From Escherichia coli (GTDB lineage: Bacteria > Pseudomonadota > Gammaproteobacteria > Enterobacterales > Enterobacteriaceae): a DNA stretch of 882 bases. The notes beneath the pieces are model-generated. The model searched no databases. It was not told the origin of the DNA and saw only the letters and a program-made list of their open reading frames with translations. This document shows, in pieces, positions 199-239 of the stretch. Within the stretch, counting starts at the first letter, position 1; each line of letters begins with the position of its first letter. The stretch is from assembly GCF_003334765.1 (NCBI RefSeq), contig NZ_QOWT01000095.1, one strand, 5' to 3'. Made by a program: the position numbers and the translations under genes.

Positions 199-210
199 AT
201 AGCCGCCTTG

Positions 211-239
211 TTGTAATGACAACATTTTGCGGCTATTCT
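211..239 (+). promoter_or_regulatory. Candidate sigma70 promoter of rdl (copy 1)
   Basis: -35 TTGTAA (211-216), 17-nt spacer, -10 TATTCT (234-239), about 7 nt before the proposed Rdl 5' end at 246. Motif match is moderate and was read by eye. Confidence 0.5.

Follow-up and report, generated by a model that had tools for sequence, protein, structure and literature searches.

The window, by which we refer to the whole analysed stretch of 882 nt, spans the tandem LDR-B/LDR-C array of Escherichia coli, located in the spacer between kdsA and chaA and composed of two ldr/rdl type I toxin-antitoxin units. These are arranged as direct repeats with a spacing of 535 bp, and positions 1-300 (taken as a 300-nt reference copy) and 536-835 are 100% identical. 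When compared to LDR-B and LDR-C of K-12 MG1655, 878 of the 882 positions are the same, and each of the 5,426 complete E. coli genomes contains a match to the window, with kdsA and chaA confirmed as the flanking genes. The assignment to the ldr/rdl type I toxin-antitoxin systems is given by the Ldr peptide, the Rdl RNA and the ~535-bp direct repeats, and homologues carry the Pfam domain PF13940. The features of both units are collected in Table 1.

The E. coli ldr/rdl loci, LDR-A to LDR-D, were reportedly described by Kawano et al. in 2002. The architecture and the start of Rdl have been known since that year, and no new element is present in the window. Indeed, the peptide, the Rdl RNA and the 48-nt spacing between the rdl start and the toxin start codon are the same as in the ldr/rdl systems of E. 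coli, and the architecture is without difference. What we add here is the conservation of the rdl promoter over 66 units, together with hairpins of the ldr strand that are supported by covariation. Regarding the toxin itself, Ldr is given in several database entries as a 44-aa protein beginning at an upstream in-frame ATG (225-223, minus strand), whereas the curated K-12 Ldr coding sequence comprises 35 aa. The upstream ATG is without a Shine-Dalgarno sequence and is located at the junction between the internal loop and the inner stem of hairpin B (described below).

Table 1. Features of the ldr/rdl units in the window. Arms of helices are given on the ldr (minus) strand.
Feature	Position	Strand	Basis or remark
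ldr mRNA intrinsic terminator	6..41	-	9-bp GC-rich stem and T-run
ldr toxin coding sequence, 35 aa, MTLAQFAMIFWHDLAAPILAGIITAAIVSWWRNRK plus stop	91..198	-	ORF list; RefSeq: Ldr family toxin
Candidate leader ORF (ldrX-like), 20 codons, MKPDTSRIAAKCCHYNKAAI, TTG start	195..257 (also 730-792)	-	ORF list
Hairpin B, predicted: outer helix AUAGCCGC (236-229)/GCGGCUAU (206-199), inner 224-219/214-209	199..236	-	MFE and centroid structures
ldr Shine-Dalgarno AGGCGGC, core AGG at 208-206	202..208	-	Conserved upstream of ATG in homologues
rdl promoter -35, TTGTAA	211..216	+	TTG invariant in 66/66 units
rdl promoter spacer, 17 nt	217..233	+	Length 17 in 66/66; positions 230-233 invariant
rdl promoter -10, TATTCT	234..239	+	Positions 1, 2, 3, 5 and 6 invariant
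Hairpin A, UCUUGAA (259-253)/UUCAAGA (243-237)	237..259	-	MFE structure, compensatory changes
rdl antitoxin sRNA (rdlB equivalent)	246..311	+	Rfam RF01813 (rdlD), model positions 1-66
ldr promoter -10, TAGTAT	389..394	-	Conserved in upstream-region alignment
Second ldr coding sequence	626-733	-	ORF list
Second rdl promoter copy (rdlC equivalent)	746..774	+	535-bp direct repeat
Second rdl RNA	781-846	+	Rfam match, full length

The first rdl RNA matches RF01813 from end to end and scores 91.4 bits, well over the gathering score, which is 50. Its layout consists of a 16-nt 5' tail followed by a terminator hairpin and a U-run, with a terminator-like site at 287-306. The 5' end of the match, G246, is found 6 nt downstream of the rdl -10 and 48 nt from the ldr ATG (198-196, minus strand). 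Each of the curated K-12 genes rdlA, rdlB and rdlC likewise starts 48 nt from its own ldr ATG, and the sequence upstream of K-12 rdlB and rdlC is identical to that of the window. Thus, the distance of 48 nt between the rdl start and the ldr AUG, as put forward in the original prediction, is recovered from the Rfam 5' end and from the K-12 annotation, which agree on G246. A third, independent support for this start comes from genome-wide 5'-end reads, which were reported to coincide exactly with the published RdlA and RdlD starts (Dornenburg et al. 2010, PMC2912661). Moreover, the starts of antitoxin RNAs, RdlD included, have been found to fall in local minima of folding energy (Fozo et al. 2010).

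The sequence upstream of G246 displays the layout of a sigma-70 promoter, with two hexamers, a spacer within the range of 16-18 nt and a start within 5-9 nt downstream. The hexamers agree with the consensus at 8 of 12 positions, and a promoter scan over the window with a cut-off of 9/12 returned no site, thus missing the rdl promoter. In our own scan the cut-off was set to 8/12, exploiting dinucleotide shuffles of the 535-bp unit as control. Sites of this grade were observed three times per 535-bp unit, as compared to 1.7 +/- 1.3 in the shuffles, and the hexamer match of the rdl promoter, taken alone, is no better than chance. An 8/12 site that is correctly spaced for a start at 246 was present in 0.6% of the shuffles.

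For the promoter, the comparison of related units is decisive. A pattern from the rdl 5' region recovered, on genome contigs, only nine enterobacterial loci plus chance matches, and a protein search with the 44-aa extended Ldr returned nearly exclusively E. coli sequences, adding no diversity. The diversity of the set was instead obtained from a scan of metagenome contigs, for which 20 nt of the rdl terminator served as pattern; the terminator is situated outside the promoter, so that circularity is avoided. One of the metagenome units, L039, proved to match by chance and was left out. The set was completed with enterobacterial loci found in genomes of Escherichia albertii, E. whittamii, Citrobacter sedlakii and Pseudocitrobacter. 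The final set comprises 66 distinct ldr/rdl-like units, including divergent Ldr peptides as well as unrelated small peptides on the same scaffold.

Across these units, the arrangement TTGnnn-17-TATyCT-6-G is invariant in sequence as well as in spacing (66/66). The -35 hexamer occurs as TTGCAA (34 units), TTGTAA (19), TTGATT (7), TTGAAA (4), TTGTCA (1) and TTGAAT (1), and the -10 hexamer as TATTCT (35) or TATCCT (31), while the G at +1 is present in every unit and the spacer is devoid of indels. Indels of 1-6 nt are found just upstream of the -35, i.e. between it and the Shine-Dalgarno. The invariant bases (TTG, as well as TA..T and two more in the -10) coincide with the positions at which sigma-70 promoters vary least, and we take the rdl promoter as real. 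The -35 that had been predicted at 211-216 is confirmed and belongs to a geometry that does not change in any of the 66 units.

On the opposite strand, the promoter borders the ribosome-binding site of ldr. In homologues, the complement of the Shine-Dalgarno sequence upstream of the ATG reads CCGCCT, CCATCCT or AGCCT. The original prediction had the -35 directly adjoining the Shine-Dalgarno complement at 206-209, which reads CCTT on the plus strand and AAGG on the ldr strand. The proximity stands, the two elements being 2 nt apart; the extent does not, as the A at 209 varies across units and the Shine-Dalgarno is rather AGGCGGC (208-202) with the core AGG (208-206). It was also given correctly that the rdl promoter is flanked by the segment complementary to Rdl (246-311) on one side and by the ribosome-binding site of ldr (208-202) on the other.

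We then assessed the local fold of the ldr mRNA. The ldr strand from 262 to 193 (70 nt) forms two adjacent hairpins with a predicted energy of -23.5 kcal/mol (z = -6.25), and no shuffled sequence was as stable. In the first, hairpin A, the sequence complementary to the rdl start is contained in the loop, and bases 4-6 of the rdl -10 fall within the 3' arm. Compensatory double changes were seen in the set of 66 units at five of the seven pairs of this hairpin, where the fourth base of the -10, either T or C, covaries with the base opposite to it. Its G.U pairs would turn into A.C mismatches if the plus strand were folded, and hairpin A is therefore formed by the ldr mRNA. An inverted repeat at the rdl start was also considered as a protein operator and rejected, since the arms vary yet stay complementary and the G.U pairs are valid on the ldr strand only.

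The second, hairpin B, has an outer helix that is predicted to sequester the ldr Shine-Dalgarno sequence. The anti-Shine-Dalgarno GCCGC (233-229, ldr strand) is encoded by the rdl promoter spacer, from which the ldr strand also takes the 5' portion of a small hairpin; with the TAT of the -10 and the spacer both lying in the outer helix, these two promoter parts together encode the anti-Shine-Dalgarno side. Three pairs of the inner hairpin are compensatory, and position 4 of the -35 takes part in one of them. The outer helix, on the other hand, varies one-sidedly, on the 3' side only, and has no compensatory change, a pattern that fits a 5' side fixed by a second constraint, namely the promoter. 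Hence, in each hexamer the only position that is free to vary is engaged in RNA pairing. In the predicted structure, the Shine-Dalgarno is paired regardless of whether the Rdl-complementary segment is left free or blocked. As a separate observation, RNAalifold pairs an upstream GGYGGC (332-328) with GCCGC (233-229) on the ldr strand, which may represent a switch by alternative pairing; neither this pairing nor the Shine-Dalgarno helix shows compensatory change, and single-sequence folding favours the latter.

With nearly every base of the rdl promoter located within a conserved RNA helix, and with hexamers that by themselves match no better than chance, the region 211-239 could be conserved for ldr mRNA structure or leader coding only, the hexamers being coincidental and rdl being served by another promoter or sigma factor. 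Indeed, part of the conservation of the promoter may stem from constraint at the RNA level, because most of its bases also participate in helices. Nevertheless, TTG and TAT.CT are retained even when the bases they pair with in the RNA differ between units (pairs 167-208 and 169-206), and also when the helix has degenerated, which is the case in the group of units encoding MDFLKAV peptides. Furthermore, the 17-nt spacer and the 6-nt distance between the -10 and the start are fixed in 66/66 units, with indels 1-6 nt away. The positions that do vary, i.e. the fourth of each hexamer and the fifth and sixth of the -35, are those that sigma-70 tolerates, and the mapped rdl start is at the right distance from the hexamers. 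Conservation for the RNA alone is thus extremely unlikely.

Next, the geometry of the two promoters was considered. The ldr -10 appears in the alignment as TAGAAT, TAGTAT, TAGGAT or CATGAT, with a start at ~382/381 (minus strand), while the ldr -35 is poorly conserved, with at best 3/6 matches. The resulting ldr mRNA is ~375 nt, from the start at ~382 to the terminator at 41-16. The rdl and ldr starts converge with ~136 bp between them, a spacing equal to the overlap of 136 bp between RdlD and ldrD from RNA-seq (PMC7967276). As had been anticipated, a polymerase from the ldr promoter, positioned upstream on the minus strand, has to cross the rdl promoter; the locus thus has face-to-face promoters of which one is traversed by elongation from the other. 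Polymerases from rdl stop at ~311, ~70 bp short of the ldr start.

From this convergent layout, the original prediction derived possible transcriptional interference or promoter occlusion in addition to RNA-RNA pairing. Spelled out, this view would make interference, through occlusion, sitting-duck removal or head-on collision, a significant regulatory layer, with rdl output being reduced in cis by transcription of ldr, or ldr transcripts being cut short by transcription of rdl. The geometry permits such effects, as the starts are close and every ldr polymerase passes Prdl. We exploited a toy stochastic model with an elongation rate of 40 bp/s, an open-complex lifetime of 5 s or 20 s and assumed firing rates, in which a head-on collision removes both polymerases and an arriving ldr polymerase displaces the open complex at Prdl. 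With Pldr firing at 0.05 per s (about every 20 s), rdl was decreased by ~40%, and with Prdl firing at 0.05-0.15 per s full-length ldr was decreased by 10-40%. These effects represent upper bounds, given that no polymerase was allowed to survive a collision in the model; many collisions are estimated to be survived (Brophy and Voigt). At a Pldr rate of 0.01 per s or less, the loss of rdl, again an upper bound, was at most 10-16%. Strong firing of Pldr is not predicted in view of its poor -35, and Pldr is not overrun as Rdl terminates ~70 bp before the ldr start.

Precedents for interference exist in systems of similar layout. In RnaG/icsA of Shigella and MtlS/mtlA of Vibrio cholerae, as in ldr/rdl, the promoter of the sRNA borders the region where the target gene starts or is contained in it, the promoters converge at a distance of ~100 bp, and the target polymerases cross the sRNA promoter. 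In these two systems the cis effect has been measured with promoter fusions; the likeness of ldr/rdl to them is one of geometry. On the contrary, SymR/symE, a type I pair of E. coli with a cis-antisense antitoxin that overlaps the 5' end in the manner of ldr/rdl, displays no such coupling: SymR levels are constant under symE induction, meaning that the layout alone does not imply interference. In the literature examined, a cis effect at ldr/rdl is unreported, with co-occurrence of the terms being incidental, and reviews describe that co-expression of RdlD suppresses LdrD toxicity. A Reg-Seq preprint names ldrD and rdlD as targets, its text presenting no result for either. Aggregated, these points render interference unlikely as a significant layer of regulation. 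It is a possibility generic to any cis-antisense pair, and the passage of ldr polymerases over Prdl, while unavoidable, probably has a minor effect.

Short 5' fragments of ldr could be viewed in the same light. A 122-nt cDNA complementary to rdl is known as StyR-207/EcoR-207 from Salmonella Typhi and E. coli K-12, and an 'ldrD short' transcript is seen only in rnc mutants. If begun at the ldr start, such short RNAs would extend from ~382 to ~261 and end close to the rdl start. They could originate from collision, from cleavage of the duplex by RNase III, from protection by a stable hairpin or from weak termination after the hairpin, and the RNase III explanation accounts for them equally well as interference does. 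In its strongest form, the argument for interference starts from the double use of the rdl -10 and spacer as 3' arm of hairpin A and as anti-Shine-Dalgarno, and would have ldr transcription over Prdl lower Rdl synthesis in cis, through sitting-duck removal or collision, just as new ldr mRNA is made. Each LDR copy would thereby possess its own self-reinforcing switch, comparable to prgQ/prgX or mtlA/MtlS, with EcoR-207 and 'ldrD short' as products of collision or roadblock. We consider such a switch very unlikely.

The explanation that we favour, and to which we assign high confidence, is that 211-239 constitutes the sigma-70 promoter of Rdl, placed antisense within the ~184-nt ldr 5' UTR, that dual coding explains the compact layout, and that Rdl is mainly a diffusible antisense RNA. 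According to reviews, translational inhibition by RdlD has been described, and Rdl overlaps the ldr 5' UTR rather than the ribosome-binding site; a 2021 review states that the manner in which Rdl blocks ldr translation is still unknown. We propose that Rdl would act mainly by blocking ldr translation in a diffusible manner. The single-stranded 5' tail of Rdl would initially meet the loop and the 5' arm of hairpin A, which is the likely recognition site for Rdl. The anti-Shine-Dalgarno GCCGC of hairpin B would meanwhile pair with the Shine-Dalgarno, such that the toxin start stays closed. Translation of ldr would then require an upstream event, and it is this event that Rdl would prevent, possibly by covering the start of an ldrX-like frame whose translation may open hairpin B.

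The layout of the promoter is congruent with this proposal. Since the 5' tail of Rdl must match the loop of its target, rdl starts in the loop, and its promoter consequently comes to lie over hairpin A's 3' arm and the helix that follows, with the -10 in this arm and the linker. The same bases that form the promoter thereby also encode conserved hairpins of the ldr mRNA, which is a more evident reason for the compact arrangement than interference.

As to the upstream event, a candidate leader frame starts with the TTG at 257-255, within the Rdl target, and its stop codon UGA overlaps the ldr AUG (AUGA). Among the 51 units that have the TTG, the frame is open to the toxin AUG in 50, where it ends or runs in frame into the toxin. 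As cited in reviews, an analogue of mok in the ldr leader, named ldrX, was put forward by Gerdes and Wagner, and the TTG frame of the window may correspond to it. The case for an ldrX-like frame is weak, as a stretch of 15-20 codons without a stop may well arise by chance when the sequence is conserved.

The similarity to hok/mok/sok of plasmid R1 nevertheless extends beyond the leader frame. Both systems have a long, structured toxin 5' UTR, an antisense RNA that is opposite to the leader instead of the toxin ribosome-binding site, an antisense promoter inside the toxin unit, and a proposed leader frame (mok and ldrX, respectively) with a start covered by the antisense RNA. Sequestration of the Shine-Dalgarno as in hok/mok/sok would be matched in ldr by the predicted AUAGCCGC/GCGGCUAU helix. 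A difference is that the ldrX-like candidate frame ends at, or continues in frame into, the toxin AUG. Congruent with the likeness, the Rfam model RF01794 (sok/hok) matches the ldr 5' UTR of both units on the minus strand, with 29.3 bits at 348-196 (E = 1.5e-4) and 25.8 bits at 882-731 (E = 1.3e-3). Both scores are below the gathering score of 59, placing the units outside the hok/sok model; the sub-threshold matches hint at a leader architecture similar to that of hok.

In this locus, one strand of a ~50-bp stretch acts as promoter while the other encodes structured mRNA, and the stretch represents a clean example of such dual use. The elements recovered by comparison, i.e. the covarying hairpin with the Rdl target, the anti-Shine-Dalgarno helix and the TTG leader frame, bear on the mechanism of Rdl. 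Dual coding and the conserved RNA elements are more informative than the interference reading: even if the latter were true, ldr/rdl would join RnaG/icsA and MtlS/mtlA as a further example and not as a new principle.

The comparison also yielded units of different content. Nine (L053, L056, L058, L060, L068, L085, L088, L090 and L096) encode MDFLKAV.. peptides of 43-51 aa on an rdl-type scaffold, and L033 encodes a 30-aa peptide, MTLNEALLLAVV.., on a scaffold of the same type, with the terminator probe sequence and TTGnnn-17-TATyCT. These peptides are small, hydrophobic and unrelated to Ldr, and neither kind has an NCBIfam match. The antitoxin and leader thus appear to form a module that is common to different toxins. 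Separately, sites resembling the LexA box, CTGT/G-N8-A/CCAG, are present in L082, L066 (three tandem units), L046 and L070, for example CACTGTATATTTTCACAGCAT in L082. They are situated ~35-50 nt upstream of the -10 of the toxin promoter, and the toxins are Ldr relatives of the MTLMQW.. and MTLTQW.. types. Judged from these motifs, the observation suggests that some toxins of the Ldr family may be SOS-inducible, like tisB, symE and dinQ.
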